A DNA stretch of 64,000 bases from an uncultured Clostridium sp. (lineage in GTDB: Bacteria > Bacillota > Clostridia > TANB77 > CAG-508). The notes below the pieces were generated by a model, which was not told the origin of the DNA, made no database searches, and was given only the letters and a program-made list of their open reading frames with translations. Below are positions 16,127-57,265 of this stretch, one piece after another (position 1 is the stretch's first letter; each line of letters begins with the position of its first letter). The translations under genes and the position numbers were made by a program. Location: positions 9,602 to 73,601 of the forward strand of contig CAOKEO010000003.1 in assembly GCA_948467495.1 (NCBI GenBank), given 5' to 3'.

Positions 16127-16203
16127 GCTCCCTTAGCTCAGTTGGTCAGAGCAACCGGCTCATAACCGGTGGGTCCAAGGTTCGAATCCTTGAGGGAGCA
16201 CCA
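16127..16203 (+). tRNA. tRNA with CAT anticodon, non-initiator (elongator Met or lysidine-dependent Ile2)
   Basis: Cloverleaf with acceptor GCTCCCT/AGGGAGC, anticodon loop CTCATAA, TPsiC GGTTCGAATCC and encoded CCA. G1-C72 excludes an initiator. D-arm and anticodon loop resemble Ile2-type. Confidence 0.9.
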
Positions 16204-16219
16204 TATCAATTTTATATTT

Positions 16220-16305
16220 GGGTAGGTGGCCGAGTGGCTAAAGGCGGCAGACTGTAAATCTGTTCTCATTTGAGTACGAAGGTTCGAATCCTTCCCTGCC
16301 CACCA
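16220..16305 (+). tRNA. tRNA-Tyr (GTA)
   Basis: Acceptor GGGTAGG/CCTGCCC, anticodon loop ACTGTAAAT, long variable arm, GGTTCGAATCC, encoded CCA. Confidence 0.92.
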
Positions 16306-18092: not shown

Positions 18093-18101
18093 GAGAATAT
18101 T

Positions 18102-18968
18102 ATGGAAGAAAATGTTTTAGATCAAGTAATGAAAAAATCAATTGAAGTAATGATAGCAAATGCAGGAAATGATAATAAAATCAAAAAATTAAAAAAGAAG
18201 CATGAAAAGAAAATTCATTTTATTCCTATTAGGTATAGAGTGTTTGGCGGAATAATACAATCAATGAATATTCAATTTGGTAATTTTATTGAAGAAGCAA
18301 TTCATCAAATCTTATTAGTAAATAAAAATAATAAAATAATTGAAGATTATTCAGGCAAAAGATCTAATAGATTTTGCATAAGTAAAAAAACAGAAAGTCT
18401 AATAGACCAATATATTACTGATTGTGAAACACATACATATTCAGAAGAAGAACAAAAAGTAAATTACAATAAATTATTGGAAGATATTATTAAAAATGAA
18501 AAAAATGAAGAGCTAGAAACAATTAATTTTAAACATGATGTGGATGTATTATTTAAAGATACTATATGTGGAATTACATATTATGTAGAAATAAAATATA
18601 ATGATGACCACGATACTGGAAAATTTGTTGATATAAATAGAAAATTATTGAAAACTTATGCATATCTTGTTCGAGAATTAAAGATATATGATAAAGATAA
18701 ATTTAGACCAATGTTATTTTACTTTACGAATAAGAGAATGAAAGGAAATATTTATATACCAGAAAATGAGATATATAGGGGAACTAGATTTTTTGATAAA
18801 TATACAACTATAAAATATTCTGATTTAAAAGATTATATGTTGAATATTAGCGAAAATGAAGAAACTATCATGCAATTTAATGATATGTATAATAAAGTGA
18901 TAAATGAAAATGTTTATACATATAATGAAAACTTAGACATTACCTGTCTAAAAGAGGGTATGTATTAA
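18102..18968 (+). CDS. putative type II restriction endonuclease, cognate of the adjacent methyltransferase
   Basis: Starts 10 nt after the methyltransferase stop. Contains a PD-(D/E)XK-like signature DVDVLF...YYVEIKYN. No other family recognised. Confidence 0.55.
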   Translation: MEENVLDQVMKKSIEVMIANAGNDNKIKKLKKKHEKKIHFIPIRYRVFGGIIQSMNIQFGNFIEEAIHQILLVNKNNKIIEDYSGKRSNRFCISKKTESLIDQYITDCETHTYSEEEQKVNYNKLLEDIIKNEKNEELETINFKHDVDVLFKDTICGITYYVEIKYNDDHDTGKFVDINRKLLKTYAYLVRELKIYDKDKFRPMLFYFTNKRMKGNIYIPENEIYRGTRFFDKYTTIKYSDLKDYMLNISENEETIMQFNDMYNKVINENVYTYNENLDITCLKEGMY

Positions 18969-21911: not shown

Positions 21912-22003
21912 GCCTGTCCCAAAAAACACCTACAGGGATAATTGGGGACTGTCCCAGAACATACCTAAAGGGATAATCGGTGCCTGTCCCAAAACGCACC
22001 CAA
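21912..22003. repeat. CCTGTCCCAAAA..AGGGATAAT tandem element (2.5 units of about 35 bp)
   Basis: Same unit at 38396..38496 (same orientation) and 36889..36946 (inverted). Confidence 0.8.
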
Positions 22004-37378: not shown

Positions 37379-38267
37379 CTAATCTACCTTTATTTCTTTT
37401 CTTCTTACGATTTCATTTGCTGCTTTCTTCCTATGAAATTCATCTAATACATACACTCTTTTTATAATCCATTCTAATCCTGTTTTTATCCAATTTGCTC
37501 CATGGCCGGAAATATATACTCTTTCTAAATAATCTGTATCATAGTTGTTTTCTAAATAAGTCATAACTTCTTGCCATAAATCATCTATTTTCTTTGTGTA
37601 AATTCCTCCAAAATGTTTTTTATTTTTTAGCTCAAATTTTTTACTTTTGCTACTATACTATCTATACAATGATTAGTCTTGGTTCTTCTATTCCTCCTTT
37701 TTGTAAATGCACATAATTTTTATCTGCCATGATATATATTCTTTTTACTTTCTTTTTGCTCTTTTTTCTTCTGACATTTCTGACTTAAAATCTAATTTAT
37801 TAATTTGATTTTTATGGTTTGTTTTGATATTTCTGTCTCGTATGATGCTTTCTGTCTAGCCTTTTTATAGGACATTTCTCTTGCTTCTTCTATTAATTTT
37901 TCTTTTACATTTGGTAACATTCTTTCTCTTTTTTCTAGTTTTAAAAATTGGTCTAACTGATAAATTCTTTCTTTAGTCTCCTTATCTTGATAATATCTTC
38001 TTTTAAAATTTACTTCTCCAAAGATTGATATGATTGTTCTATCATCTTTTTCTAAGTATTCAAATTTTTCTTTTCTGTCTTTTAATTCTAAAATTATATT
38101 TTCTGCACATTCTACTAAAAATTGTGTTACTTGGTTTCCGAACACTATCATTTTGCTTTCTAAATCATTTGTAAAATCTGATATCCTTTTTCTGTTATTG
38201 AATTTTTTAAACAATTTGCTACTAAAGTAATGACTTTTTCATTAAAATCGTGTAAAATATTTTCCAT
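37379..38267 (-). mobile_element. degraded ISLre2/UPF0236-family transposase gene (multiple frameshifts, internally deleted)
   Basis: Fragments MENILHDFNEKV.., ..RTIISIFGEVNFKRRYYQDKETKERIYQLDQFL.., ..ADKNYVHLQKGG.. and ..YISGHGANWIK.. lie in different frames. Total length is far below that of an intact transposase. Confidence 0.7.
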
Positions 38268-38395: not shown

Positions 38396-38496
38396 CCTGT
38401 CCCAAAAAACACCTATAGGGATAATCAGTGCCTGTCCCAAAAGTAACCAAAAGGGATAGTCGGTGCCTGTCCCAAAACACACCCACAACGCACCAC
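38396..38496. repeat. CCTGTCCCAAAA..AGGGATAAT tandem element (about 2.7 units)
   Basis: CCTGTCCCAAAAAACACCTATAGGGATAATCAGTG / CCTGTCCCAAAAGTAACCAAAAGGGATAGTCGGTG / CCTGTCCCAAAACAC... Confidence 0.8.
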
Positions 38497-41260: not shown

Positions 41261-41396
41261 TTTGCTTTTTCCTCCTTATTCAAAAATTTCATTCTGAATT
41301 TCTATCTTTCTTTTAAGAAAATTTTTCACTGATTCTATAAAATTGATTAAAAATTATTTTACAATTAGCAAATTTAACCTTTTATCAATTGCTATG

Positions 41397-41583
41397 AAAT
41401 TGATTAAAAATAGTAAGATGTGCAATTTTCACATTCATTTTAATCCGAAGGTGTACATTGGTACATCGAGGTTATGATGATTACAATCTCACTTAGTTCA
41501 ATTGCATAAGTTATCTGTAGTCTGCTTTGCTTCACACAGCTAACTCAAAATTGTGCAGATTGCTGCTTTCAATCGATTTCACT
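41397..41583. repeat. composite repeat: long imperfect palindrome (core GAAGGTGTAC-ATTG-GTACATCGAGG) with a 68-bp CACAATCTCAC..CACACAGC module (41479..41546) inserted in its right arm
   Basis: The arms GAAATTGATTAAAAA.. and ..CTTTCAATCGATTTC are complementary. The inserted module recurs at six other sites. Confidence 0.75.
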
Positions 41584-41952
41584 CTATTTTTTGCTTTTGC
41601 TAACCAACTTCCTAGGACCCTTTCTAGTTCTAGCATTCGTTTTAGTTCTTTGTCCTCTAACAGGAAGACCTCTTCTATGTCTTAGTCCTCTGTAGCATCC
41701 TATTTCAGTAAGTCTTTTGATATTAAGAGCAACTTCTCTTCTCAAGTCTCCCTCTACTGTATATGATTCGTCAATTACTTTTCTAATATCATTTACTTGA
41801 TCATCTGTTAAATCTTTAATTCTAGTATCTGGATTTATACCAGCTTTTTCAAGAATTTTTCTAGAACTTGATACGCCTATACCATAAATGTAGGTAAGTC
41901 CTATTTCCACTCTTTTTTCCTTTGGTAAATCTACTCCTGCTATACGAGCCAT
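41584..41952 (-). CDS. rpsM: 30S ribosomal protein S13
   Basis: [26 protein letters not shown]... GGAGGTG 9 nt upstream of ATG 41952. Confidence 0.97.
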
Positions 41953-42177
41953 ATTTTTTTGCACCTCCAAATTTTTTAATACTTACAAATTCGCTTTGCT
42001 CATCTGTATCAATTTTTTATTTGTCCTAAAAACATTTAAAGGTGAAATGCTACTGGTGTTTACCCCAGTCTCTTTAACGTTTTAAGACATATATATAAAC
42101 ACAAATTTGATATGTAACCCCTATTTTACAAAGGCTCACAGCCGCTACCTAATTTGTGTTATGAACAAATATAAGGA

Positions 42178-42291
42178 TTAACCTTGTCTTTGTTTGTGTT
42201 TAGGGTTTTCACAAATAACTCTAATCACACCTTTTCTTTTTATAATTTTGCATTTATCACATATTTTCTTTACTGATGGTCTTACTTTCAT
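42178..42291 (-). CDS. rpmJ: 50S ribosomal protein L36
   Basis: My translation is [37 protein letters not shown]. It is below the ORF-track size cut-off. GAGGAGGTG upstream. Confidence 0.93.
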
Positions 42292-42511
42292 TTCTGCACC
42301 TCCTCTTTCTTGACAGGGGACACACCTTACTGTGTTGTTTTTTACTTAGGTTAAGGAATGTCTCCTCCCCTTAGATTAAGTGTCTCTACTTTTTAGTCCT
42401 CTGTTTTGTAGTTTCTATATTGGGTTAATTTTTAACTTTTTTACTATCCATACCAAAACAAATAAAATTATTGTTGTTCATTCCTGATTGCTCAAGCAAC
42501 AAGGTAATCAT

Positions 42512-42730
42512 TTACTTTGCTCTCCAAGTAATTCTTCCTCTTGTTAAGTCATAAGGTGACAACTCTACTTTCACCTTATCTCCTGGTAAAATTTTAATAT
42601 AGTTCATTCTCAATTTTCCAGAAATATGAGCTAATATCTGATGTCCATTTTCAAGTTCCACTTTGAAATTAGTATTTGGTAAAGATTCTACTACTTTTCC
42701 CTCTACCTCAATCACATCTTCTTTCGCCAA
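42512..42730 (-). CDS. infA: translation initiation factor IF-1
   Basis: (M)[52 protein letters not shown]... TTG start 42730 with AAGGAGGG 7 nt upstream. Confidence 0.95.
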
Positions 42731-42819
42731 TTTTTTTCCCTCCTTAAAGAGCACTTTTCCTTGATTATTATGCAAAATATGGCTATTTTGCATAATAACT
42801 ATTAGATTATATACTATTT

Positions 42820-43590
42820 TTAAAGTATTGTCAATATTTCCGGCTCTTTTTCTGTAATTAAAATGGTATTTTCATAGTGAGCTGCCAAACTCCCATCTTC
42901 TGTCATAATCGTCCACCCATCATCTAATTCTAAAATATTAGGCTTTCCTGCTATTACCATGGGTTCTATCGCCAATGTCATACCTGGTTCCAATCGAATT
43001 CCCCTTCCTGCTTTTCCATAATTAGGAATCCCTGGATCTTCATGCATTTCTTTTCCAATGCCGTGTCCTTGAAACTCTCTTATAACAGAATATCCTTGTG
43101 AACGTACATACTCTCCAATCGCATGACATACATCACCAATTCGATTTCCTACTTTAGCATATTGAATGCCTTCAAAAAATGCTTGTTTGGTCACTTGCAC
43201 TAGTCTTTCCGCCTCTTTTGATGCTTTCCCAACAAGAAAGGTTCTAGCAGCATCGCCATGATAGCCATTTTTTAAAGCAACTGTATCAATACTTACCACA
43301 TCGCCCTCTTTTATAATTCTATCTTTAGAAGGAATTCCATGAATTACCTCATCATTAATAGAAACACAAAGGGAAGCTGGAAAAGGTGGTACTCCTTTGA
43401 TTCCAATATCATATCCTTTTTCTGCTGGAATCGCCCCCAAACTTCTCATTTTTCGTTCTGCTATTTGGTCTAATTCCCATGTTGACATCCCTGGCTTGAT
43501 ATGTTGTTCTAGTTCCTGATATGTTAATGCAACAACTTTACATACCTCTTGCATTAAAGTAATCTCTTTTTTTGACTTAATGGTTACCAA
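42820..43590 (-). CDS. map: type I methionine aminopeptidase
   Basis: 256 aa with metal ligands in ..[14 protein letters not shown].., ..GHGIG.. and ..AIEPM... TTG start. Confidence 0.93.
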
Positions 43591-43671
43591 CTTAACTCGT
43601 CCTCTCTCTTTTCTAGTTAATGCTATTTATCTACCTAAGGTGTATCTATTATTTTTTACACCTTAAATAGA

Positions 43672-44331
43672 TTACACTGATTTTATGATATCTTCTGCTA
43701 CATCTTTTCCCATCCTATTAATAGAAGTACTTACTGTCTCTGTTCTTAAAACTCCTTTGTTTTCGTAGTATTCTACTAATGGGCTGGTTTGTTCTTCGTA
43801 AATTTGTAATCTCTTATGAATTGCCCCTGAATTACAATCATCTTCTCTTTGTTTCAAAGAAGAACCACATTTATCGCAAATCCCATCTACTTTTGGTGGA
43901 TTTAATTTAATATTATAAGTTGCTTTACAATCTTGATTCGTACATACTCTTCTTGTTAGCATTCTATCAATCAACTCTTCTTTTGGTGTTTGTAAATTAA
44001 TGACTAAATCTACTTTTTTTCCAAACTCTTGTAAAATTTCATCTAATTTTTCAGCTTGTTGTATGGTTCTTGGAAAACCATCTAAAATAGCACCATTTTG
44101 TGCATCCTCTTCTTTTAAACGATTGATTACCATAGGAACCGTTATCTCATCTGGTACCAATTCTCCTTTTGCCATATATTCATTTGCTTTCATTCCTAAT
44201 TCTGTTTTTTCACTAAGATTTTTTCTGAAAATATCCCCTGTTGATATCTGTGGCCACCCCTTTTGTTGGCTAATTAGTCCTGCTACTGTTCCCTTTCCTG
44301 TCCCTTGTGCTCCTAACATGATAATTACCAT
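43672..44331 (-). CDS. adk: adenylate kinase (Cys4 zinc lid)
   Basis: MVIIMLGAQGTGKGT P-loop, lid CTNQDCKATYN...CDKCGSSL. Confidence 0.93.
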   Translation of the reverse strand: MVIIMLGAQGTGKGTVAGLISQQKGWPQISTGDIFRKNLSEKTELGMKANEYMAKGELVPDEITVPMVINRLKEEDAQNGAILDGFPRTIQQAEKLDEILQEFGKKVDLVINLQTPKEELIDRMLTRRVCTNQDCKATYNIKLNPPKVDGICDKCGSSLKQREDDCNSGAIHKRLQIYEEQTSPLVEYYENKGVLRTETVSTSINRMGKDVAEDIIKSV

Positions 44332-44608
44332 ATAAATCCCTCTTTTCATCTTATAAAAATTAGATTATTATATAAATTGTCTAAAACGCAATTAATAATC
44401 TTTATCATATCTATTCTTTTCCTATTCATAAACATGATAAAAATTATTAAATAGAACAACAGTGGCATGTTAAAATTTCTTCACCTTTTAGATTAGTTTT
44501 CATGCCACACCCGTTGTTCGTTCGCCAAAATTGCAAGCAATTTTCTGTAAAATGCTTTCTATTATAGGAAATTCAGAGAATTTTCCTATAATAGAACAAA
44601 ACTAAGAT

Positions 44609-45928
44609 TTATTCTAAGAAACCTTTATAGTGTCTCATCGCTAATTGAGATTCTAGTTGTTGTACCGTTTCTAAAGCAACTCCCACAACAATTAAGATAG
44701 ATGTCCCACCAAATGCAATATTTAGATTGGTAAATCTCAATAACATTGGCAAGATAGCTATTACTGCTAAGAATAATCCTCCAAATACCGTTAATTTAGA
44801 TATAATAGATGATAAATATTCAGTGGTTGGTTTACCAGCTCTAATTCCTGGTATAAATCCGCCATTTTTCTTAATATTATTGGATACTTCTGCTGGATTA
44901 AAAGTAGCATACGTATAGAAAAAAGTAAATCCAACAATTAATAGTAAATAAACAAGAGCATTTGCTATCGAATAGCTAATTCCTACATCAGATGTAGAAG
45001 TAGCAATTGAAAAATTATATAATCCTGCTAAAAATCCCGTATGACTTGCTATATCTGGTACAAAAATTTGAATAATCATAGCTGGAAATGTCATAAAAGA
45101 AGAAGCAAAAATAACTGGCATAACTCCTGCCATAGCAAGTTTTAATGGAATATGTGTACTTTGTGCACCTACCATTTTTCTTCCCACTACTTTTTTAGAA
45201 TATTGTACTGGTACTCTTCTTTCTGCTTGTTGAACAAATACTACTCCTGCTACTAATACTAAAGCACCTATAACAATTCCAATTGCTGTCAATAATCCTG
45301 TTGTGCTAAAGCCTTGTTCTGTCATTATTTGATTCCATAAAGTTGGCAGACCACTTGGTAATCTTGAAATAATACCAATAAAGATTAATAAAGAAATTCC
45401 ATTTCCAATTCCTTTATTGGTAATTTGGTCTCCTAACCACATAAGAACAGATGTACCTGCTACTAGTCCAACCACTACTAATGAACCTGTTAGGAAACTT
45501 TGATTCACAAATATACCAGAAGATTTATAAGATAAATAAACTCCAATTGCTTCTACTAACGCTAAAATAATAGTTAATATTTTGGTATATCTATTTATTT
45601 TTTGTCTTCCTTCTTCTCCGCCTTCTTTGGTCAATTTTTCTAAAGCTGGTATAATCATAGCCAATAGTTGAATCACAATAGAGGCTGTTATGTATGGACT
45701 AATTGACATAGCAAAAACAGAAAATCTAGAAAATGCCCCTCCTGAAATCATATCAATTAATCCTGCAAATCCATTCGTATTTCCCATTGCTTCATTTAGT
45801 GCTACACTATTTACACCTGGTACTGTAATAAAGCACCCAAGCCTAAATACAACAATTAGCACTAATGTGTATAATAGTCTTTTTCTTACATCTGGCGTCT
45901 TTATTGCATTTTTGATTGTTTTAAACAA
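44609..45928 (-). CDS. secY: preprotein translocase subunit SecY
   Basis: 439 aa, 10 TM helices, typical SecY sequence. TTG start directly after the rplO stop with GAGGTGG upstream. Confidence 0.96.
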   Translation of the reverse strand: MFKTIKNAIKTPDVRKRLLYTLVLIVVFRLGCFITVPGVNSVALNEAMGNTNGFAGLIDMISGGAFSRFSVFAMSISPYITASIVIQLLAMIIPALEKLTKEGGEEGRQKINRYTKILTIILALVEAIGVYLSYKSSGIFVNQSFLTGSLVVVGLVAGTSVLMWLGDQITNKGIGNGISLLIFIGIISRLPSGLPTLWNQIMTEQGFSTTGLLTAIGIVIGALVLVAGVVFVQQAERRVPVQYSKKVVGRKMVGAQSTHIPLKLAMAGVMPVIFASSFMTFPAMIIQIFVPDIASHTGFLAGLYNFSIATSTSDVGISYSIANALVYLLLIVGFTFFYTYATFNPAEVSNNIKKNGGFIPGIRAGKPTTEYLSSIISKLTVFGGLFLAVIAILPMLLRFTNLNIAFGGTSILIVVGVALETVQQLESQLAMRHYKGFLE

Positions 45929-46363
45929 TTAAACCACCTCAGCCTTTCCGCCTAAAGCTTCAATTGCTTCTTTGGCTTTTGCTGTAAATCTTTTTGCTTT
46001 AATATTTAACTTCTTGTCTAATTTTCCTGTTGCTAACACTACGATTCCATCATTAACTTTTCCGATAATTCCTTCTGCCAATAAGGTTTCTGCTGTTACT
46101 TCGGTAGCTTTTGATAGATTTAACATTTTTAATGTTACCTCTGTATAAGTTTTGGCATGAATATTGGTGAAACCTCTTTTTGGTAATCTTCTATATAATG
46201 GTGTTTGACCACCTTCAAAACCTCTTCTTACGCCTCCACCACTTCTTGCTTTTTGTCCTTTATGTCCTCTTCCAGATGTCTTTCCATTTCCAGAAGCCAT
46301 TCCACGACCTACTCTATTTCTCTTTACTTTACCTACAGTTGGTTTTAACTCATTTATTTTCAT
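45929..46363 (-). CDS. rplO: 50S ribosomal protein L15
   Basis: [53 protein letters not shown] upstream of ATG 46363. Confidence 0.95.
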
Positions 46364-46419
46364 TTGGTATTTTGCACCTCCTCTTTCTAAGTTAGCCGTT
46401 AGCGACAAAGGAGCTTTAC

Positions 46420-46636
46420 GGATAACTTATGCAAAATGCGTAAGCATTTTGTAATCCTTAATTTCCTTCTTTTGCCTTTCTCTACCTATGATGAATTATG
46501 GATAACATGCACAAAATGCGCAAGCATTTTGTAATCCTTAATTTCCTTCTTCTGCCTTTCTCTACCTATGATGAATTATGGATAACATGCAAAATGCGTA
46601 AGCATTTTGTAATCCTTAATTCTCTTCTTTGCCTCT
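46420..46636. repeat. tandem repeat, 80-bp period, 2.7 copies, occupying the position where rpmD (L30) normally lies
   Basis: Units start at 46420, 46500 and 46580. Each has an 8-bp hairpin CAAAATGC-GTAA/GCAA-GCATTTTG. Confidence 0.9.
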
Positions 46637-46650
46637 TAGCTATATTCACA

Positions 46651-47136
46651 TTATAAAATATCTTCTACTTTTTTACCTCTCTTTTTAGCCACTTGTTCTA
46701 CTGTTTGCATAGCCTTTAATCCTTCAATTGTAGCATAAACAACATTTCTTGGATTATTGGTTCCAATAACTTTTGTTCTAATATTTCTATAACCAGCTAG
46801 TTCCATAACTGGTCTTACGCTTCCACCTGCTATGATACCAGTACCAACTGCTGCTGGTTTTAGCATAACTTTAGCACTACCAAAAGTCCCAACATATTCA
46901 TGAGGTACAGTTGTTTCAACGATTGGCACTTCCACTAAGTTCTTTTTCGCTTCTTGGATTGCTTTTTTGATAGCATCTGGAACTTCTGCTGCTTTACCAT
47001 TTCCTACACCTACATGACCATTTTCGTCTCCTACTACTACGACAGCACTAAATCTAAAAGTTCTACCACCTTTAACAACTTTAGCAACTCTATTAATAGC
47101 TACAACCTTTTCTTTTAATTCATTTTTCTCTTCCAT
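46651..47136 (-). CDS. rpsE: 30S ribosomal protein S5
   Basis: [26 protein letters not shown].... Confidence 0.97.
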
Positions 47137-47229
47137 AGGTTTTTGTTAATCCTCCTTTTCTTGTTTTTGTCAAGGGACACTTTATTTATCCATAAGTGTT
47201 TACCCTATCTTAATTTCTGATATTTATTT

Positions 47230-47589
47230 TTAGAACTTAAGTCCACCTTCTCTTGCTGCTTCTGCTAGTTCTTTAACAACACCATGATAAATATATCCAC
47301 CACGGTCAAAAACAACGGTTTCAATCTTTTTATCAGCTGCTTTTTTAGCAATTAAAGTACCTAATTCTTTAGCGGCTTCTTTATTAGCATGTTTTGTTTT
47401 GATTTCCTTATCTAATGTTGAAGCTGATACTAATGTATTTCCTGCAACATCATCGATAATTTGTACATATAAATTTGTATTACTTCTATATATACATAAT
47501 CTTGGTCTTTCTAGTGTTCCAGATATCTTTCTTCTTACACGAATGTGTCTTCTCGTTCTTTCCATTTTTCTATCTGTCTTTTTAACCAT
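47230..47589 (-). CDS. rplR: 50S ribosomal protein L18
   Basis: [25 protein letters not shown]...[27 protein letters not shown]. Confidence 0.97.
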
Positions 47590-47632
47590 TTCCTTACTCC
47601 TTTCTAAAAATTGAGTTTTTACTATTCATTCA

Positions 47633-47759
47633 TAATTCAAATCAAATTTGATATATTGTGCATTTTTCAGATTGATTACAAGCCGAAGGTGTACGTTGGT
47701 ACATCGAGGTTTGAAATCAATATGGAAAATGTACAAAATGTTAATTTTCATTTGAATTA
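47633..47759. repeat. 127-nt imperfect palindrome filling the rplF-rplR spacer
   Basis: Pairing partners sum to 95392 (e.g. 47681:47711). Inner hairpin GGTGTAC-GTTG-GTACATC. 5 G:T pairs and no A:C pairs on the plus strand. Confidence 0.85.
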
Positions 47760-47761
47760 GT

Positions 47762-48298
47762 TTATTTTCCAGTCTTACCTTCCTTACGTCTAATAACCTC
47801 ATCAGCGTATTTAATCCCTTTTCCTCTATACACTTCTGGTGGTCTTTTCATTCTAATAACTGCTGCTGTTTGACCAACTAATTCTTTATCAATTCCATTT
47901 ACAATAATCGTATTAGCATTTGGAACATCAAAAGTAATTCCATCTGGTGCTTCAAAAATAACTGGATGTGAATAACCTAAAGTTAAATTTAAGTTATTTC
48001 CTTGTTTTGCTACTCTATATCCAACACCATTAATTTGTAATTCTTTACTATAGCTACTGGTTACACCAATAATCATATTATTGATTAATGTCCTAGTTAA
48101 GCCATGTAAGCTTCTGTTAGCTGGTTCATCATCTTTTCTAGTAACTGTAATGATATTATCTTCCATTTTAACAGAAATATTTTTATGTATTTCTCTTGCT
48201 AATGTACCTTTTGGTCCTGTTACAGTAATATTTTGTCCTTCTATTTTCACTTGTACTTCTGATGGTACTGTGATAGGTTTATTTCCTATTCTTGACAT
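47762..48298 (-). CDS. rplF: 50S ribosomal protein L6
   Basis: MSRIGNKPITVPSEVQVKIEGQNITVTGPKG.... Confidence 0.97.
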   Translation of the reverse strand: MSRIGNKPITVPSEVQVKIEGQNITVTGPKGTLAREIHKNISVKMEDNIITVTRKDDEPANRSLHGLTRTLINNMIIGVTSSYSKELQINGVGYRVAKQGNNLNLTLGYSHPVIFEAPDGITFDVPNANTIIVNGIDKELVGQTAAVIRMKRPPEVYRGKGIKYADEVIRRKEGKTGK

Positions 48299-48380
48299 TA
48301 TTTTCCCTCCTTTTTTAATGATTACAATCTCACTTTGCTCGATTGCATAAATTATTTGTAGTTCGCTTCACACAACTAAC

Positions 48381-48779
48381 TTACCATACATAGGCTAATA
48401 CTTCTCCACCAACACCTAATTCTCTAGCTTCTTTATCTGTTTTTAGTCCTTTTGATGTAGAAATGATAGCAATTCCTAATCCATTTAATACCTTTGGTAA
48501 TTCTTCTTTGGATGCGTACACTCTTAATCCTGGTTTACTAATTCTTTTTAAACCATCAATTACTCTGGTTCCTTTTTCATCATATTTTAGTGTAATTCTT
48601 ATGATTCCTTGTGTATCATCTTTGATTTCTTCAAAAGATTTTATATATCCTTCTTTGAATAGAATTTCAGCAATTCCTCGTTTCATATTGGAAGCTGGAA
48701 CATCTACTGTTTTATGCTTTGAACTATTTGCATTTCTAATTCTTGTTAACATATCTGCAATTGGATCTGTAATGTTCAT
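48381..48779 (-). CDS. rpsH: 30S ribosomal protein S8
   Basis: [18 protein letters not shown]...GGEVLAYVW. Confidence 0.97.
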
Positions 48780-48866
48780 GAATTACTTACCTCCTTTTCT
48801 TCTTTCTTAGCAAGGGGCTTATTTCCCCTTCTTATCTTTATTTTAGCATTTATTTATTTGTTAAAA

Positions 48867-48981
48867 AAATCAAAATTAGTATATTGTGCATTTTTGTTAA
48901 GTTTTTCAAGATGAAGGCGTACACGAGTACGTCGAAATTTGAAAAACTTACTGAAAATGTGCAAGATGCTGATTTTCATTT
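48867..48981. repeat. 115-nt imperfect palindrome in the rpsN-rpsH spacer
   Basis: Pairing partners sum to 97848. Inner hairpin GGCGTAC-ACGA-GTACGTC. 7 G:T pairs and no A:C pairs on the plus strand. Confidence 0.85.
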
Positions 48982-48987
48982 ATTTTA

Positions 48988-49173
48988 TTACCAGCTGGCT
49001 TTTTTTACACCTGGAATCTCTCCCTTATGTGCTAACTCTCTAAAACATACACGGCATATACCATATTTTCTGATATAGCTATGTGGTCTTCCACATAATT
49101 TACATCTGTTGTATTCTCTTGTTTTATATTTTTGTGGTCTAGCTTGTTTTATTTTCATTGACTTTTTAGCCAT
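48988..49173 (-). CDS. rpsN: 30S ribosomal protein S14, zinc-binding type Z
   Basis: 61 aa, [23 protein letters not shown]. Confidence 0.96.
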
Positions 49174-49194
49174 AATTTTACTCCTTTCTTACAG

Positions 49195-49477
49195 TTCACA
49201 ATCTCACTTTGTTCGATTGCGTAAGTCATCTGTAATTCGCTTAGCTTCACACAGCCTACTACTGAATGTTCACAATCTCACTCGTTCGATTGCGTAAGTC
49301 ATCCGTAATTCGCTTCGCTTCACACAGCCTACTACTGAATGTTCACAATCTCACTTCGTTCGATTGCGTAAGTCATCTGTAGTTCGCTTCGCTTCACACA
49401 GCCTACTACTGAATGTTCACAATCTCACTCGTTCGATTGCGTAAGTCATCTGTAGTTCGCTTCGCTTCACACAGCTG
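49195..49477. repeat. tandem array (3.8 copies, 73-74 bp) of the CACAATCTCAC..GATTGCGTAAGTCATCTGTA..CACACAGC module
   Basis: Units start at about 49195, 49269, 49342 and 49416. The last unit overlaps the final codons and stop of rplE. Confidence 0.92.
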
Positions 49478-50012
49478 ACTTAAATGGCATTCCTAATGCT
49501 TGTAATAATTCTTTTGATTCTTCGTCTGTTTTGGCTGTTGTTACAAATATGATGTCCATTCCTCTTAATTTATCAACTTTGTCATATTCAATTTCAGGGA
49601 ATATTAATTGTTCTTTTACTCCCATAGAGTAATTTCCTCTACCATCAAAAGAGTTTGTTGATACTCCTCTAAAATCTCTTACTCTTGGAAGGGCTACATT
49701 GAATAATTTGTAAGCAAAGTCATACATTTTGTCTGCTCTTAATGTTACTTTACATCCTATGTTCACACCTTCTCTTAATTTAAATGCTGCAATTGATTTT
49801 TTTGCTTTTGTAATAACTGGTTTTTGTCCTGTTATTTGCATTAAATCATTCATCGCATTTTCCAATGCTTTTGGATTTTCTTTTAAATCTCCTAATCCTA
49901 TATTAATTACTATCTTATCAAGTTTTGGTACTTGCATCACTGATTTATATTCAAATTTTTTCATTAATGCTGGGATTACTTCCTTTTCATATTGTTCTCT
50001 TAATTTTTCCAT
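49467..50012 (-). CDS. rplE: 50S ribosomal protein L5
   Basis: [20 protein letters not shown]...[15 protein letters not shown]. Start ATG 50012. Confidence 0.95.
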
Positions 50013-50038
50013 AATCAACGAATCCTCCTTTCTTTCTT

Positions 50039-50347
50039 CTATTTTATGGTCGCACCGCATTTTTTACAAACACGTACTTTTTGGTCTTTTTCTATTTGAT
50101 ATCCAATTTTTGTAGCTTTACCACATTTTGAACATACTACATTTACTTTTGAACTTGGTATAGCACATTCAATTGCTATGATTCCGCTTTCTTCTCCTTG
50201 TTTTCTGGCTTTTACATGTTTTTTTCTAACATTTACACCTTTTACAATGATTTTATCAGTCTTTGGATTGATTTGTAACACTTCTCCTGTTTTACCTTTG
50301 TCATTTCCTGATAAAACTTGAACGTTATCACCTTTTTTGATTCTCAT
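50039..50347 (-). CDS. rplX: 50S ribosomal protein L24
   Basis: [23 protein letters not shown] (KOW motif). Confidence 0.96.
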
Positions 50348-50400
50348 TTAGGAATTTCCTCCTTTTCTTAGTTTTTATTTTTATTCTCTGTTGTAAAACG

Positions 50401-50640
50401 AATTAGAATTAGTATATTGTGCATTTTGCTGATACTGTTAAGCTTTAGCTGTTACAGTATCAGTATGCAAATGAATTTTATATTCATTTGCCCTCATTTC
50501 ACTAACTTCAAGCTGAAGGCGTACTCTTGTATGTCGAAATTATAATGACTACAATCTCACTTCGTTCGATTACATAAGTTATCTGTAGTTCGCTTTGCTT
50601 CACACAGCTAACTCAAAAATGCACAAGATGCTGATTATAA
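50401..50640. repeat. composite repeat: outer palindrome carrying two different inserted modules
   Basis: Left arm 50401..50430, double-hairpin module 50431..50512, core hairpin GAAGGCGTAC-TCTT-GTATGTCGAAA, CACAATCTCAC module 50547..50614, right arm AAAAATGCACAAGATGCTGATT. Confidence 0.75.
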
Positions 50641-50646
50641 TTTGTT

Positions 50647-51015
50647 TTATAGAACTTCTGGAGCTAATGAAAGAATTTTCATATACTCCTTCTCTCTTAA
50701 CTCTCTTGCAACTGGTCCAAAGATACGAGTTCCCTTTGGCGTTCCATCTTCTTTAATAATAACAGCTGCATTTTCATCAAATTTTATATATGAACCATCT
50801 GCTCTTCTTAATCCACTCTTAGATCTAACAATAACAGCTTTTACAACATCACCTTTTTTAACAACGCCACCTGGTGTTGCTGATTTAACAGAAGCAACTA
50901 TAACATCTCCTATATTAGATGTTTTTCTAAATGATCCTCCTAAACATCTGATACACATGATTTCTTTCGCCCCTGTGTTGTCTGCTACTTTTAATCTTGA
51001 TTGTTGTTGTATCAT
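50647..51015 (-). CDS. rplN: 50S ribosomal protein L14
   Basis: [23 protein letters not shown].... Confidence 0.98.
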
Positions 51016-51031
51016 TTTGGTTCCTCCTTTC

Positions 51032-51295
51032 CTACTTTATATCTGCTTTTTCTACAACTTCAACTACTCTCCATCTTTTATCTTTAGAAAGTGGTCTTGT
51101 TTCCATTACTTTTACTTTATCACCCATTTGGCAAACATTTTCTTCATCATGTGCTTTTAATTTGTAAGTTCTTTTTACTGTTTTACCATATACTTTATGA
51201 CTAACACTAGTTTGAACAGCTACTACTACTGTTTTATCCATCTTATTAGATGTTACTGTACCAATCATAACTTTACGAAGATTTCTTTCTTCCAT
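51032..51295 (-). CDS. rpsQ: 30S ribosomal protein S17
   Basis: [16 protein letters not shown]...[23 protein letters not shown]. Confidence 0.97.
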
Positions 51296-51421
51296 TTAGA
51301 TTTCTCCTTTCTAATAATGTCAGGGGACACACCTCTTCCCCTTAGGTATTCCACTTAAGTTTGGGAAATAGCCCCTCTCCTTGCTTTTAAGTGTTTACCT
51401 TTTTGCTAACATATTTCATTT

Positions 51422-51628
51422 TTATGCTTTAGCATCTAGCATTTTTCTTTCTGTCAATACGGTATTTATTTTAGCTATATCTTTTTTTACCTCTTTTATT
51501 TTCATAGGATTATCTAATCCGTTGGTAGCTAAACTAAATTTTAATTTGAACAATTCTGTTTTTAGTTCACCTAATTCTTTCTCTAAATCTGGTGAAGACA
51601 TTTCTCTTATTTTATTTATCTTCATCAT
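51422..51628 (-). CDS. rpmC: 50S ribosomal protein L29
   Basis: [34 protein letters not shown] 51628 is preferred over the track's GTG at 51634. Confidence 0.93.
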
Positions 51629-52055
51629 TTTCACCTACCTTTTCTGTTTCTCTTGCTACAAATTTTGTTTTGTTAGGTAGTTTGTTCATAGCAAGTCTTA
51701 AGGCTTCTTTTGCAGTTTCTTCTGATACTCCAGAAATCTCAAACATTACTCTTCCTGGTTTTACAACTGCAACCCAATATTCTGGCGCACCTTTACCTTT
51801 ACCCATACGAGTTCCAATAGGTTTTGCTGTAATTGGTTTGTCTGGAAAGATTTTAATCCAAACTTTTCCACCTCTTTTTATATAACGAGTCATAGCAATT
51901 CTGGCTGCTTCAATTTGATTTCCTGTAATTAAAGCACCTGTTACTGCTTGGATTCCATATTCTCCATCTGTAACTTTATTTCCTCTTGTTGCCTTTCCTC
52001 TCATTCTACCTTTTTGTACTTTTCTATGTTTTGTTCTTTTTGGCATTAATGGCAT
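51612..52055 (-). CDS. rplP: 50S ribosomal protein L16
   Basis: [22 protein letters not shown].... Confidence 0.97.
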
Positions 52056-52711
52056 TATTGGTCTCCTCCTTCCATTTTCTTCTCTGGAAGAACTTCTCCT
52101 TTATAAATCCAAACTTTTACACCGATTTTACCATAGGTTGTATCTGCTTCTGCAAATCCATAATCAATATCAGCTCTTAAAGTTTGTAGTGGAATATTTC
52201 CTTCTTTATAGAATTCAGTTCTAGCCATGTCAGCTCCACCTAATCTTCCAGATACAGCAGTTTTAATTCCTAAAGCACCTGCTTTCATAGATTTTTGCAT
52301 ACATTGTTTCATGGCTCTTCTGAATGAAATTCTTCTTTCTAATTGTCCTGCAATATTTTCTGCTACTAATTGAGCATCTGTATCCATATTTTTAACTTCT
52401 ACGATGTTTAAATTAACATCTTTACCAATTAATTTTGTTAATTCTGCTTTTACACTTTCTACACCTGCTCCACCTTTTCCAATAACAATTCCTGGTTTTG
52501 CCGTGTGTAAATTAACCTTGATTGCTTTTGCTGTTCTTTCAATTTCAATTTTAGAAATACCAGCAAGATATAATTTTTTCTTTAAAAATTTACGAATCTT
52601 TTGATCTTCTACTAAATAATTTGCAAAGTTTCTTGAATCTGCATACCATTTAGAATTCCAATCTTTTATGATTCCAACTCTTACTCCTGTTGGATGTACT
52701 TTTTGTCCCAT
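52055..52711 (-). CDS. rpsC: 30S ribosomal protein S3
   Basis: [24 protein letters not shown].... Confidence 0.98.
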
Positions 52712-52718
52712 ATTATTC

Positions 52719-53084
52719 CTAGTCCTCCTTTTCTTTCAAAACTATTGTAATGTGACTTGTTCTTTTTCTAATTCTTACTGCTGAACCTTTTGCAGCTGGA
52801 CGTATTCTTTTTAAAGTTGGTCCTTGATTGCTATAGATTTCAGCAACATATAATTTCTCATGTCTCATGTCATGATTATTTTCAGCATTTGCGATAGCTG
52901 ATTTTAATAATTTCTCTATGATTTCTGATGATGCTTTTGGTGTGAATTTTACGATAGCTAAAGCTTCATCTACATCTTTTCCTCGAATTAAATCTGCTAC
53001 GATTTTAACTTTTCTAGCTGAAATCCTTGCATATTTCAAGGTTGCTTTTGCTTCGTTTCTAACTAATGTTTCTTGCTCTTGCAC
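52719..53084 (-). CDS. rplV: 50S ribosomal protein L22
   Basis: [25 protein letters not shown]... GTG start with AAGGAGG upstream. Confidence 0.95.
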
Positions 53085-53156
53085 TTTTCTTACCTCCTTA
53101 GATTAGTGTCTAGGGGCTACTTATCCATTTAAGTTTTTCCCCTTCTATTTGTCTCT

Positions 53157-53432
53157 CTATTTATTTGTTTTCTTATCTCCTGCATGACCTTTGAAGGTTC
53201 TTGTAGGAGCAAATTCACCTAATTTATGACCAATCATTTCTTCTGCTATATAAATTGGAACATGTTTTCTTCCATCATGTACAGCAATTGTATGACCAAC
53301 CATTTGTGGATATATTGTTGAAGCTCTAGACCATGTCTTTAAAACTTCTTTATTTCCAGATTCATTCATAGCTTCTACTCTTTTTAGTAGTTCTGGTGCT
53401 ACATATGGTTTTTTCTTGCTTGATCTTGACAT
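53157..53432 (-). CDS. rpsS: 30S ribosomal protein S19
   Basis: [30 protein letters not shown].... Confidence 0.97.
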
Positions 53433-53460
53433 ATTATAAATGTCCTCCCTTCTTTTTTTA

Positions 53461-53576
53461 GTAAGTTATCCGTAAAACTCACTTCGTTCGCTAACGGCTT
53501 TTCTATTGTTCACAATCTCCCTTTGGTCGATTGCGTAAGTTATCCGTAGAGCTCGCTTTGCTCGCTAACGGCTAAC
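53461..53576. repeat. 1.6 copies of the CACAATCTC..GATTGCGTAAGTTATCCGTAG..GCTAACGGCTAAC module variant
   Basis: Begins immediately after the rplB stop (TGA-GTTAGCCGTTAGCG in mRNA sense). An inverted fragment lies at 46391..46432. Confidence 0.8.
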
Positions 53577-54404
53577 TCACTTTCTTCTCTTTACAATAAA
53601 TTTATTAGATTGTTTCTTTTTATTTCTTGTTTTATATCCAAGAGCTGGTTTACCCCAAGGTGTCATTGGTCCAGCGTGTCCTACTGGTGCTCTACCTTCA
53701 CCACCACCATGAGGGTGATCTACTGGGTTCATTACAGAACCTCTAACAGTTGGTCTAATTCCCATATGTCTTTTTCTACCAGCTTTACCAATTTTAACAT
53801 TCTCATGATCACTATTTCCGATTACTCCGATAGTAGCTCTACAGGTTGCTAAAATTAATCTCATTTCTCCTGATGGAAGTCTTACATGGGCATATTTTCC
53901 TTCTTTTGCCATTAATTGTGCACTTTGTCCTGCTGCTTTTACTAATTTTCCACCTTGTTTTGGATTTAACTCAATGTTATGAATTAAAGTACCTACTGGA
54001 ATTGAACTAATTGGCATACAGTTTCCTGGTTTGATATCAGCTGTTTCTCCAGATATCACTTTATCTCCATCTTTTAATCCTTGTGGAGCTAAGATATATG
54101 CTTTTTCTCCATCTTCGTATTCCACTAATGCAATATTAGCACTTCTGTTTGGATCATATTCAATTCCTATTACAGTTGCTGCCATATCGTCTTTTCTTCT
54201 TTTAAAATCTACTATTCTATATTTTTGTCTATTTCCACCACCTTGATGTCTTACTGTGATTCTTCCATAGGAGTTTCTTCCTGCATTTTTCTTTTTCTTT
54301 GCTAATAAAGATTTCTCAGGAGTTTTCTTTGTAATTTCTCCAAAGTCTGAAACTGTCATATTTCTTCTAGATGGTGTATAGGGTTTGAAGTGTTTCATTC
54401 CCAT
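53577..54404 (-). CDS. rplB: 50S ribosomal protein L2
   Basis: [14 protein letters not shown]...[15 protein letters not shown]. Start ATG 54404 (AAAGGAG upstream). Confidence 0.96.
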
Positions 54405-54675
54405 TTTTTTCTCCTTTCTCGAATTCATGAAAAACTTCGTTTTACGTCGTTACTGATGCTATTAAAGCTTTGCTTGTTACTGCATTAGTATGCAGTTTGC
54501 GTAGCAAACTGACTTCATTAAGTTTTCCTAGTAATACTCGTTTTTGTTGAATTCTCTACTCTACTGATTGGTTTTCGAGAGTAGTTGCGGACTTTTTCCT
54601 GCTCCGCATAACAGATATTCTTTATTTTCCTGGTATTTTCCAGCTAATTTTTTTATCTAATTTCCATTTGTGTAC

Positions 54676-54868
54676 GAAATTGATTAAAAGTGATATATTG
54701 TGCATTTTGCTGATATTGTTAAGCTTCAGCTGTTACAATATCAGTATGCAAATGAATTTTATATTCATTTGCCTCCATTTTCTTAATCTTAAACTGAAGG
54801 CGTACGTTGGTACGTCGAAATTTGTAATCAATAGCGAAAATGTGCAAGATGTTGCTTTTAATCGATTT
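54676..54868. repeat. composite repeat: outer palindrome with inserted double-hairpin module
   Basis: Arms GAAATTGATTAAAAG.. and ..CTTTTAATCGATTTC. Inserted module 54711..54796. Core GAAGGCGTAC-GTTG-GTACGTCGAAA. Ends at the rplW stop codon. Confidence 0.8.
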
Positions 54869-55216
54869 CTAGGCACCCATGAATTCGTCAATACTATCTT
54901 TGTATTTTTTCGTAACTTTTGTTGCTTTTCCACCTTTTGCTAAATAAGAGGTATCTTCTGGATTAGTATCAATTGTAACAATTGCTTTCTTCCAATCTGA
55001 AGTCTTACCAATGTGGTAACCAACTCTTTTCTTCTTACCATTTACATTCATGGTATTCACTTTTAAAACTTTTACCTCAAAAAGTTTTTCAACAGCTTTT
55101 GCTATTTCCACTTTTGTTGCTTTTTTATTTACTTTGAAAGTGTATTTTCCTTCTTGCAATTGATCATTACTTTTTTCTGTAACAATTGGTGCTACAATAA
55201 TCTCTTCTGGTTTCAT
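54869..55216 (-). CDS. rplW: 50S ribosomal protein L23
   Basis: IVAPIVTEKSNDQLQEGKYTFKVNKKATKVEIAKAVEKLFEVKV.... Confidence 0.95.
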   Translation of the reverse strand: MKPEEIIVAPIVTEKSNDQLQEGKYTFKVNKKATKVEIAKAVEKLFEVKVLKVNTMNVNGKKKRVGYHIGKTSDWKKAIVTIDTNPEDTSYLAKGGKATKVTKKYKDSIDEFMGA

Positions 55217-56491: not shown

Positions 56492-56728
56492 TTTCTTTCC
56501 TCCTAACTATTGGCTGAAAATAATAATTCTAAACTTCGTCTCACTTCGTTAAATTTCGTTCTAAAATCCCCGACCTACACAAGTACGCCTCCGGTTTTAT
56601 CACTTATTTGCCTTGTGATACTCGTTTTAAATTCTTATTTAGATTTCGGCTTGGTTTTGCTGAGGCTGTTAAATTTGTTTGTCACAGCATCAGTATGCAA
56701 ATACATTAAGCATTTGTTTTGCTTAATC

Positions 56729-57067: not shown

Positions 57068-57203
57068 TTCTTTTTATGTTCACAATCTCATTTTATTCGA
57101 TTGCGTAAGTTATCTGTAACTCGCTTCGCTTCGCACAGCTACTACTGTTCACAATCTCATTTTATTCGATTGCGTAAGTTATCTGTAGCTTGCTTCGCTT
57201 CGC
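57068..57203. repeat. two tandem 69-bp copies of the CACAATCTCA..GATTGCGTAAGTTATCTGTA..CGCACAGC module inside the S10 leader
   Basis: Units start at 57068 and 57137. The array ends 15 nt upstream of the rpsJ start codon region (SD GAAGGAGGG). Confidence 0.9.
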
Positions 57204-57265
57204 ACAGCTAACTTAATTACCTTGGCAAGTTAAAACGCACTCTGGTGTTTCGAATATCACCTATA

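Follow-up and report, generated by a model that had tools for sequence, protein, structure and literature searches.

Results

A long hairpin in the spacer between rpsN and rpsH

The ribosomal protein genes rpsN (S14) and rpsH (S8) are neighbouring cistrons on the minus strand of a 64,000-nt stretch of DNA from an uncultured Clostridium sp. (contig CAOKEO010000003.1, positions 9,602 to 73,601; the whole stretch is referred to as the window and its own numbering is used throughout). The spacer between them holds a palindromic element, here called copy B, which folds into a long hairpin on the plus strand and is one of five related copies, A to E, in the window. Gene identities were taken from Pfam calls on identical or orthologous proteins. 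The features of the locus are the following.

48381–48779, minus strand, rpsH (S8), the downstream cistron in the mRNA; its start lies 82 nt from copy B
48862–48987, plus strand, copy B hairpin, found by RNA folding, as an inverted repeat and by covariance model (123.3 bits on the plus strand versus 58.6 bits on the minus strand)
48911–48915, plus strand, 5′ side of the internal loop of copy B, ATGAA, with GAA at 48913–48915 conserved
48916–48933, plus strand, apical hairpin of copy B, GGCGTAC-ACGA-GTACGTC, read directly; 7 bp, 100% paired in 14 copies
48934–48937, plus strand, 3′ side of the internal loop of copy B, GAAA, with GA conserved
48988–48990, minus strand, rpsN stop codon TAA (open reading frame (ORF) 48988–49173), directly abutted by the 3′ end of the plus strand of copy B
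48988–49173, minus strand, rpsN (S14), the upstream cistron in the mRNA

In the mRNA sense the junction reads AGC TGG TAA/TAAAATAAATG, the slash marking the end of the stop codon. Because rpsN and rpsH both lie on the minus strand, the well-folding strand of copy B is antisense to the operon, and the strand present in the mRNA is the mismatched one.

The hairpin comprises about 55 pairs between a 49-nt 5′ arm (48862–48910) and a 50-nt 3′ arm (48938–48987), interrupted only by the mismatches A48883×G48965, T48897×C48951 and C48871×C48977 and by the internal loop, which is asymmetric (ATGAA versus GAAA). A preliminary description of this DNA had placed a hairpin at 48867–48981; it is indeed there, but the helix reaches slightly further. 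The partner sum of 97848 given at the time does not extend to the inner stem, where positions sum to 97849 because of the asymmetry of the internal loop. All seven plus-strand G:T pairs listed (48896:48952, 48895:48953, 48888:48960, 48887:48961, 48880:48968, 48877:48971 and, in the inner stem, 48917:48932) are real, although the total is too low by one, since the minimum-energy fold contains an eighth, G48910:T48938. Direct reading bears out the complete lack of A:C pairs. Folded as RNA, the plus strand reaches −47.4 kcal/mol (z = −8.5), with none of 200 shuffles folding as well, compared with −28.2 kcal/mol (z = −4.6) for the complementary strand. With DNA parameters the values are −26.2 for the plus and −19.8 for the minus strand.

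Pairing is maintained on the plus strand

An alignment, A1, was made of 14 plain copies, taken from the window and from metagenome-assembled genomes (MAGs) and metagenomes of related gut Clostridia (loci outside the window carry L numbers). RNAalifold finds 53 pairs, with compensatory double changes in 31. Of all cells in the paired columns 95.4% are paired, against 37–45% when the partners are slid by 1–3 columns, and none of 500 shuffles matched the observed values on any measure. The paired cells divide into 597 Watson–Crick, 108 G:T and 2 A:C; some G:T occurs in 21 pair columns and some A:C in 2. One-sided changes have therefore been accepted only if the plus strand stays paired. Pairing is thus selected on the plus strand (the top strand, which carries GAAGGYGTAC), where transitions that give G·T are tolerated and those that give A·C are not. 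The covariance model built from A1 likewise prefers the top strand by about 60 bits, with scores of 105–134 bits versus 42–70 bits for the reverse strand at these loci. A GC skew of −0.15 to −0.30 identifies the plus strand as the template for leading-strand synthesis and for transcription. Mutational bias was considered as a source of the wobbles and rejected, since C-to-T deamination of an exposed minus strand would be expected to leave A·C, not G·T, on the plus strand.

Two of the seven pairs of the core stem covary. One is split 7:7 between C:G and U:A, and L230 has an apical change from C:G to U:A. The preliminary description had regarded this hairpin as a second long copy with plus-strand-specific wobbles and a covarying core, a view that the 14 copies support. 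Neither of the observations that it named as speaking against itself, abundant A:C pairs on the plus strand of other copies and a core without covariation in a larger alignment, was made. It was also right about the compensatory C:G to T:A change relative to the copy at 47633 and about the conserved G:T pair next to it. That wobble, G48917·T48932, is invariant in A1. Columns A57, A58, G59, G60 and A78 are invariant too, and G56 and G77 are nearly so (at least 90%); the constant columns span GAA, the first two bases of the stem, and GA. The internal loop could possibly form tandem sheared G·A pairs plus one extra A. L123 has AAA and AA in place of the conserved GAA and GA.

Five modular copies in the window

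All five copies are on the plus strand and all lie in spacers of the S10/spc/alpha ribosomal protein cluster, while the remaining ~47 kb of the window contains none. Besides copy B they are the following.

41397–41580, plus strand, copy E, rpsM–rpsK spacer; right module; 3 nt past the rpsM stop codon
47633–47759, plus strand, copy A, rplF–rplR spacer, 2 nt past the rplF stop codon; 123.8 bits
50394–50649, plus strand, copy C, rplN–rplX spacer; additional modules on the left and right; the rplN stop codon forms its last 3 nt
54676–54869, plus strand, copy D, rplW–rplB spacer; left module; 1-nt overlap with the rplW stop codon (TAG)

Copies A and B are plain, C and D have a double-hairpin module before the tip, and C and E have a ~70-nt module after it. 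Element sizes range from 125 to 256 nt, the ends read GAAATTGATTAAAAG...CTTTTAATCGATTTC or TAAAAC...GTTTTA, and there is no conserved reading frame. Copies A to D belong to one arm subfamily (TATATTGTGCA...TGTGCAAGATG) and copy E, beside which stands a solo left end, to another (AAGATGTGCA...TGTGCAGATTG). The cores are at 41447–41469, 47685–47707, 48913–48935, 50515–50537 and 54796–54818. The further core sites noted earlier are thus all present, although the one in copy D had been placed about 8 nt away; the core at 50515–50537 reads GTAT, which adds one G:T pair. The left module of C and D (50427–50492 and 54709–54775) consists of two perfect Watson–Crick hairpins and folds with −30.6 kcal/mol (z −7.8), about equally on both strands. 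A fragment of it stands alone in the rplC–rpsJ spacer (56655–56702).

Presence and absence among relatives

Relatives were retrieved from public assemblies by means of the S14 protein of the window; their ribosomal protein genes are 87–92% identical in nucleotide sequence. In three of them (L121, L122 and L124) the S14 protein is identical to that of the window and rpsH is 91% identical, and the spacers are empty, with 76 nt between rpsN and rpsH, 24 nt between rplN and rplX and 31 nt between rplF and rplR. L123 and L125 have a 168-nt rpsN–rpsH spacer filled by an element of the other subfamily with a mutated tip. The same site is also occupied in L070, L073, L111 and L214; the elements of L070, L111 and L123 there are of the other arm subfamily. 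Tandem copies are found in L053 and a tip-less 68-nt copy at L111:7190–7257. The C-termini of the preceding genes are the same at filled and empty sites. The element is a dispersed, modular, multi-copy insertion that is present or absent between close relatives. Copies frequently lie at the ends of MAG contigs, as would suit a repeat present many times and subject to turnover. The element has TA at both of its ends, as a TA duplication would allow, but the comparison of empty and filled sites yields no simple duplication.

In L123 nearly all spacers of the spc operon are expanded to 127–169 nt. That between rplE and rpsN (L123 2343–2500) contains a diverged member, missed by the covariance model, with the internal loop TAACTAGGCAG / CTAACGACGTTAG and the tip GGAATCGTAC..GTACGATGAGG.

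Occurrence across phyla

A pattern scan with GAAGGYGTAC-N4-GTACRTCGA over one genome per species returned at least 120 loci. In almost every match listed the motif tips a ~100-nt hairpin, and the hosts among these matches include Oscillospirales and other Clostridia, Bifidobacterium, Coriobacteriia, Campylobacterota (Sulfurimonadaceae and Helicobacteraceae), Polyangiales and other 'delta' lineages, Vicinamibacteraceae, one gammaproteobacterium and one Bacteroidales MAG. At the level of phyla or groups, Myxococcota, Acidobacteria and Gammaproteobacteria are among them. These elements share the apical hairpin GAA-GGYGTAC-N4-GTACRTC-GA, while the base composition of the arms tracks host GC content. 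That the core does not vary in L001–L120 is imposed by the search pattern; copies found through their arms show core variants such as AAATTGTAC..GTACATTGA and GGAATCATAC..GTATGTGACC, and the truly constant part is GTAC-loop-GTAC with flanking GA(A) and GA. A metagenome scan with the arm pattern AAAATGTGCARRWTGCTG gave real elements only in L132, L214 and L230, the other 117 of its 120 loci being chance matches.

The strand preference extends to the other phyla. Among the matches listed the top strand is the more stable one in 108 of 115 instances, with mean energies of −55.6 kcal/mol for the top and −42.8 kcal/mol for the bottom strand and with 577 versus 287 wobble pairs. A count over the arms that makes no use of energies gave 238 transitions of the G:T type and 84 of the A:C type in the same set of matches. 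The model trained on Clostridium matches Campylobacterota elements over their full length at 45–55 bits, and elements of both groups have arm words such as ATTGTGC and GTGCAAGRTGC in common. In the Bacteroidales copy (L056 4546–4666, minus strand) two conserved arm words occur in swapped order, with GCGTGCAAGATGC 5′ of the tip and GTAGATTGTGTG 3′ of it, as though the outer helix had been flipped.

Rfam 15 gave no match at the gathering score over the whole window and none at E ≤ 10 over 41300–55000; for eight loci from several phyla, searched at E ≤ 1, only chance matches of microRNA precursors to long hairpins were obtained. Full-text literature searches by sequence words and by concepts, among them MITE (miniature inverted-repeat transposable element), REPIN (the hairpin formed by paired repetitive extragenic palindromic (REP) sequences), stop codon, ribosomal protein operon and Bifidobacterium, found no description of the element.

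Several known structures were compared and set aside. In a scan for intrinsic terminators, short GC-rich stems with a U-tract directly behind them, the element itself is never called; the one call, a weak pattern match, is confined to the 5-bp tip of the minus strand. The copies of GC-rich clades have no U-tract. The remaining comparisons were made by eye. The core of the hammerhead ribozyme (CUGANGA...GAAA) differs from C[CU]GAA-stem-GA(A) here, which lacks the G8 and A9 positions; in a kink-turn, a 3-nt bulge followed by tandem G·A pairs, the extra A would be on the other side; and a bacterial selenocysteine insertion sequence, with a SelB-binding loop 11 nt after UGA, does not suit elements that follow TAA and TAG as well as TGA. 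Resemblances to the sarcin–ricin loop, the LexA box and dif were likewise dropped.

Orientation and placement at stop codons

Copies of the window type number 27 in 17 loci. About 23 of the 27 lie between co-directional genes, all of them antisense and none sense, and three are found just past a T-box terminator, antisense to glyQS. Their neighbours are overwhelmingly translation genes, those of the spc, alpha and S10 clusters and also rpsG–fusA (L031, L132) and nusG–rplK–rplA–rplJ–rplL (L107). Read in the mRNA sense, the element begins 0–3 nt past the stop codon that closes the preceding cistron, or has this codon as its first three bases; the junctions are GCC TAG/AAATCG for copy D and CTA TAA/AACAAATT for copy C. 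At the far end of the element 26–250 nt are left to the next start codon.

For the window-type and Campylobacterota sets together, an opposite-strand stop codon directly adjoins the 3′ end of the top strand in 14 of 23 cases, whereas the 5′ end abuts a same-strand stop codon in none of the 23. The Campylobacterota alone account for a 3′ end at an opposite-strand in-frame stop codon in four of five, one of these elements following infA in the spc cluster of a Sulfurimonadaceae MAG. The rule was scored across clades on substantial opposite-strand ORFs. Most copies of Bifidobacterium and Coriobacteriia have the termini TGATG...CATCA, the first three bases being a TGA stop codon, and the Polyangiales, gammaproteobacterial and deltaproteobacterial copies likewise abut an opposite-strand in-frame stop codon. 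Over all clades, among the matches listed, 73 top strands have a gene of the opposite strand downstream of them and 27 a gene of the same strand. Inside operons the orientation is uniformly antisense, with the 3′ end of the top strand at the stop codon of the preceding cistron. Dispersed insertion, antisense orientation and abutment on stop codons go beyond what had been noticed in the preliminary description.

The hairpin of the Oscillospirales lies within a ~330-nt unit with the inverted ends GGGGAT..AAAAAAAG / CTTTTTTTACATCCCC, of which the far end abuts the stop codon, with a tightly kept distance of 130–170 nt from core to stop. This composite unit (L004, L014, L047, L078 and many others) has ends of the form GGGGAT(A/G)..AAAAAAAG and contains an internal variable hairpin that resembles a bidirectional terminator. 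Short palindromes of those ends alone (GGGCTGTAAAAAAAC...GTTTTTTTACAGCCC) stand immediately upstream.

Other features of the window

A second repeat family, of ~70 nt (CACAATCTCACTTCGTTCGATTGCGTAAGT...CACACAGC), occupies ribosomal protein spacers in one orientation, at the following positions.

48313–48381, ~70-nt repeat family
49194–49475, ~70-nt repeat family
53512–53579, ~70-nt repeat family
57077–57210, ~70-nt repeat family
50551–50617, ~70-nt repeat family, inside copy C
41477–41549, ~70-nt repeat family, inside copy E

Between rplE and rpsN it forms a tandem array of 3.8 units of 73 nt, the first of which provides the last codons and the stop codon of rplE (..MPFK/SAV* versus ..MPFK/N* in the empty relative L121). 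The repeat folds weakly, slightly better on the mRNA strand. The rplO–rpsE spacer is filled by a tandem repeat of 2.8 units of 80 nt (46416–46634). This interval corresponds to the position of rpmD (L30) in Bacillus subtilis; no L30 gene was found in the rplO–rpsE spacer of the window or of L121. Beside copy B in the rpsN–rpsH spacer, a short GC hairpin with a T-run (AAGGGGCTTATTTCCCCTT CTTATCTTTA, 48812–48830, plus strand) reads as a terminator in the antisense (plus) direction only.

Further repeats of 35 nt in tandem (CCTGTCCCAAAAAACACC[AT]AAAGGGATAATC, ~2.4 copies) are found at 21914–21994 and 38396–38483. The latter adjoins a 140-aa ORF (37792–38214, minus strand) that looks by eye like a truncated transposase and has no evident link to the hairpin elements. 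Perfect matches to TTGACA-17-TATAAT occur on the gene strand upstream of the S10 leader (57449–57421, minus strand) and of infA (42834–42806, minus strand), and to judge from their sequence they probably mark real operon promoters. A region noted at 17013–18968 and 16127–16302, both on the plus strand, includes a 359-aa ORF with a DPPY motif, resembling a DNA methyltransferase by eye, and after it a 288-aa ORF; the two are possibly a restriction–modification pair. Almost all other genes are on the opposite strand, and two tRNA genes are next to the pair.

Discussion

The explanation that we consider best, and in which our confidence is about evenly balanced, is that the hairpin represents a palindromic repeat of the MITE or REP/REPIN kind, neither coding nor autonomous, which in this Clostridium-like lineage has colonized the spacers between the cistrons of translation operons. 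During propagation the top strand would fold as a single strand, either single-stranded DNA (ssDNA) or RNA, and a trans-acting protein encoded elsewhere would read the conserved tip, made up of GAA, the 7-bp stem with its G·U pair, and GA. The fixed orientation and the position at stop codons might result from the insertion mechanism or from purifying selection. Such selection would purge copies that place the very stable strand in an essential polycistronic mRNA, with termination, cleavage by RNase III or polarity as possible consequences.

The element shares with MITEs such as Correia/NEMIS of Neisseria, the enterobacterial ERIC and the pneumococcal RUP a size in the range of 100–260 nt, terminal inverted repeats ending in TA and the lack of coding capacity, as well as insertion into transcribed spacers, effects that can be expected to depend on orientation, and presence or absence between relatives. 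It differs from them in its extreme wobble asymmetry, its uniformly antisense orientation, its position at stop codons and a tip common to several phyla; moreover, no clear TA duplication and no parent insertion sequence (IS) with matching ends were found. BOX of pneumococci is also a modular intergenic repeat of Firmicutes with optional internal modules between conserved ends, comparable to copies C, D and E versus A and B. As described, however, it is a boxA–boxBn–boxC mosaic and not a single hairpin with a fixed tip.

In its lifestyle the element resembles REPINs with their REP-associated tyrosine transposases (RAYTs), although the sequence features that define that family are not seen. The likeness lies in extragenic imperfect palindromes forming ~100-nt hairpins, in many chromosomal copies, within operons and near stop codons; like REPINs they are apparently bound to the chromosome, with none found on plasmids, and a folded single strand would be recognized strand-specifically. 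Part of the literature describes REPINs as mostly vertically inherited. A short conserved motif at the foot of a GC-rich hairpin is common to both, GAAG-GCGTAC here and GT[AG]G-stem in REPs, where the foot is defined by the conserved 5′ tetranucleotide GT[AG]G (PMC6006769). No GT[AG]G was found at a fixed position of the arms, the apical foot reading G-A-A-G-GCGTAC, and the element is one long hairpin with one tip in place of two inverted REPs; its tip is conserved across phyla whereas REPs are lineage-specific. No RAYT, which in REP systems is encoded by a single-copy gene flanked by REPs (a REPtron), was seen, and Bifidobacterium has the present elements although Actinobacteridae carry only TnpA of the IS200 type (PMC6006769).

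Several observations weigh against a mobile repeat of this kind. Comparisons of filled and empty sites gave no unambiguous target-site duplication. Clustering of the neighbours and of all ORFs of 123 loci revealed no recurrent protein near the ~125 copies. With probes for IS200 TnpA and RAYT, tblastn found no Y1/HUH protein or transposase beside copies in ~1.9 Mb, of which ~1 Mb flanks element copies, a scope that a single-copy gene elsewhere would escape. Pairing left arms with distant right arms in search of a cargo-carrying or autonomous version gave only noise, no arm pair enclosing a gene, and no full-length IS with the same ends and a transposase was found in the genomes, which are incomplete. 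The plasmid collection, queried with the window, Bifidobacterium and Campylobacterota types, contained no copy, and the core pattern met a single viral contig, by chance, inside a high-GC coding region; this is unusual for ordinary MITEs, though REPINs behave in the same way. Transposition of ssDNA after the manner of IS200/IS605 would put the active strand on the lagging-strand template, but here it is on the leading-strand template. A MITE that stems from a lineage-specific IS would not be expected to share its tip across phyla, and a position 0–5 nt from in-frame stop codons, kept in Bifidobacterium despite more than 100 nt of free spacer, is hard to obtain from a DNA target alone. Such exact placement hints at a host function or at some other targeting principle. 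Given the cross-phylum tip and the exact placement, a host function at 3′ ends, a one-way barrier to antisense transcription and an attC-like site each retain some probability.

One such host function would be exerted in the mRNA. The bottom strand might act as an intercistronic or 3′-UTR (untranslated region) hairpin with the stop codon in its base that joins the stop codon to the next ribosome-binding site, blocks 3′ exonucleases or Rho, or tunes termination or translational coupling. The start of the element at the stop codon in many phyla and, in this lineage, its strong enrichment in transcription units for ribosomal proteins, EF-G and GlyRS would be in line with this, and the bottom strand is certainly transcribed and still folds (−28 kcal/mol, z −4.6). 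It is, however, on this very strand that pairing has not been kept: the 108 G·T cells of the top strand become A·C or C·A, and one-sided substitutions toggle bottom-strand pairs. Equally close species lack the element in the same spacers, and several subfamilies and truncated copies coexist. We therefore regard a cis-acting role in the mRNA as improbable.

We also think it unlikely that the plus-strand RNA is the functional molecule, be it as a one-way barrier to antisense or convergent transcription before the coding region, as an antisense small RNA, or as a scaffold that uses its 3′ flank to pair with the gene's end. Such a role would account for a structure that is specific for the top strand and almost never followed by a co-oriented gene, and it is right at the end of the ORF that the element faces antisense polymerases coming in. 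The A-rich 5′ and U-rich 3′ arms of AT-rich copies resemble bidirectional terminators, whereas GC-rich clades are without a U-tract and the terminator scan does not call the elements. Transcription of the plus strand itself is hypothetical. Copies A, B and C have promoter-like sequences (TTGnnA-16/17-TATATT) at their left end, but these are missing in D and E, and overall 55 were found where 67 would be expected.

Integron attC sites are imperfect palindromes of 57–141 nt located at or overlapping the stop codon of the cassette, which fold on the ORF-antisense strand only, and in chromosomal arrays the folding strand is on the leading-strand template. All four of these properties recur here, as does the maintenance of structure over sequence, and the element could be thought of as a single-stranded recombination site for a tyrosine recombinase, similar to ORF-less integron cassettes placed behind genes. 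We consider this very improbable. Most copies do not fit the R-box consensus RYYYAAC...GTTRRRY of attC, with its extrahelical bases (one such copy reads GAAATTGATT...AATCGATTTC), and R and L boxes are lacking; the tip is conserved, which is the opposite of the variable terminal structure of attC; and no integrase was found in the window or in the flanks of the elements. The 'cassettes' between the sites would be essential ribosomal protein genes. Few integrons, furthermore, are known from Firmicutes and Actinobacteria. Finally, although AT-rich spacers are rich in low-complexity self-complementarity, an inert inverted repeat that arose by chance is already refuted by the z-score of −8.5 unequalled in 200 shuffles, by five homologous copies in the window with dozens elsewhere, and by covariation that beats all 500 shuffles and every slid control.

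More tentatively, the elements of all these clades may constitute one undescribed multi-phylum family of strand-specific hairpins, in which GAA / GGCGUAC-N4-GUACGUC with its obligatory G·U pair / GA would serve as a tip for recognition by a protein, and whose members lie no more than a few nucleotides from in-frame stop codons in one fixed orientation, with the folding strand antisense to the gene.

At a practical level the elements break MAG assemblies and inflate the spacers of ribosomal protein genes, which are widely used as phylogenetic markers. A mobile repeat of the kind we favour would be a Gram-positive, multi-phylum counterpart to the mostly proteobacterial world of REPs and REPINs. 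It would also provide a natural case of a palindrome to which the asymmetry between G·U and A·C gives one strong and one weak strand, only the weak one being tolerated by the host inside its essential, highly expressed operons. The stop-codon rule, if it holds from Clostridia to Bifidobacterium and Campylobacterota, would raise the question of how a DNA element finds the end of an ORF and would point to a conserved protein partner. A family spanning several phyla would then represent either a new class of ssDNA- or RNA-mediated mobile elements, whose enzyme would be widely conserved and whose way of locating gene ends would be without precedent, or a widespread system with which hosts mark gene 3′ ends.

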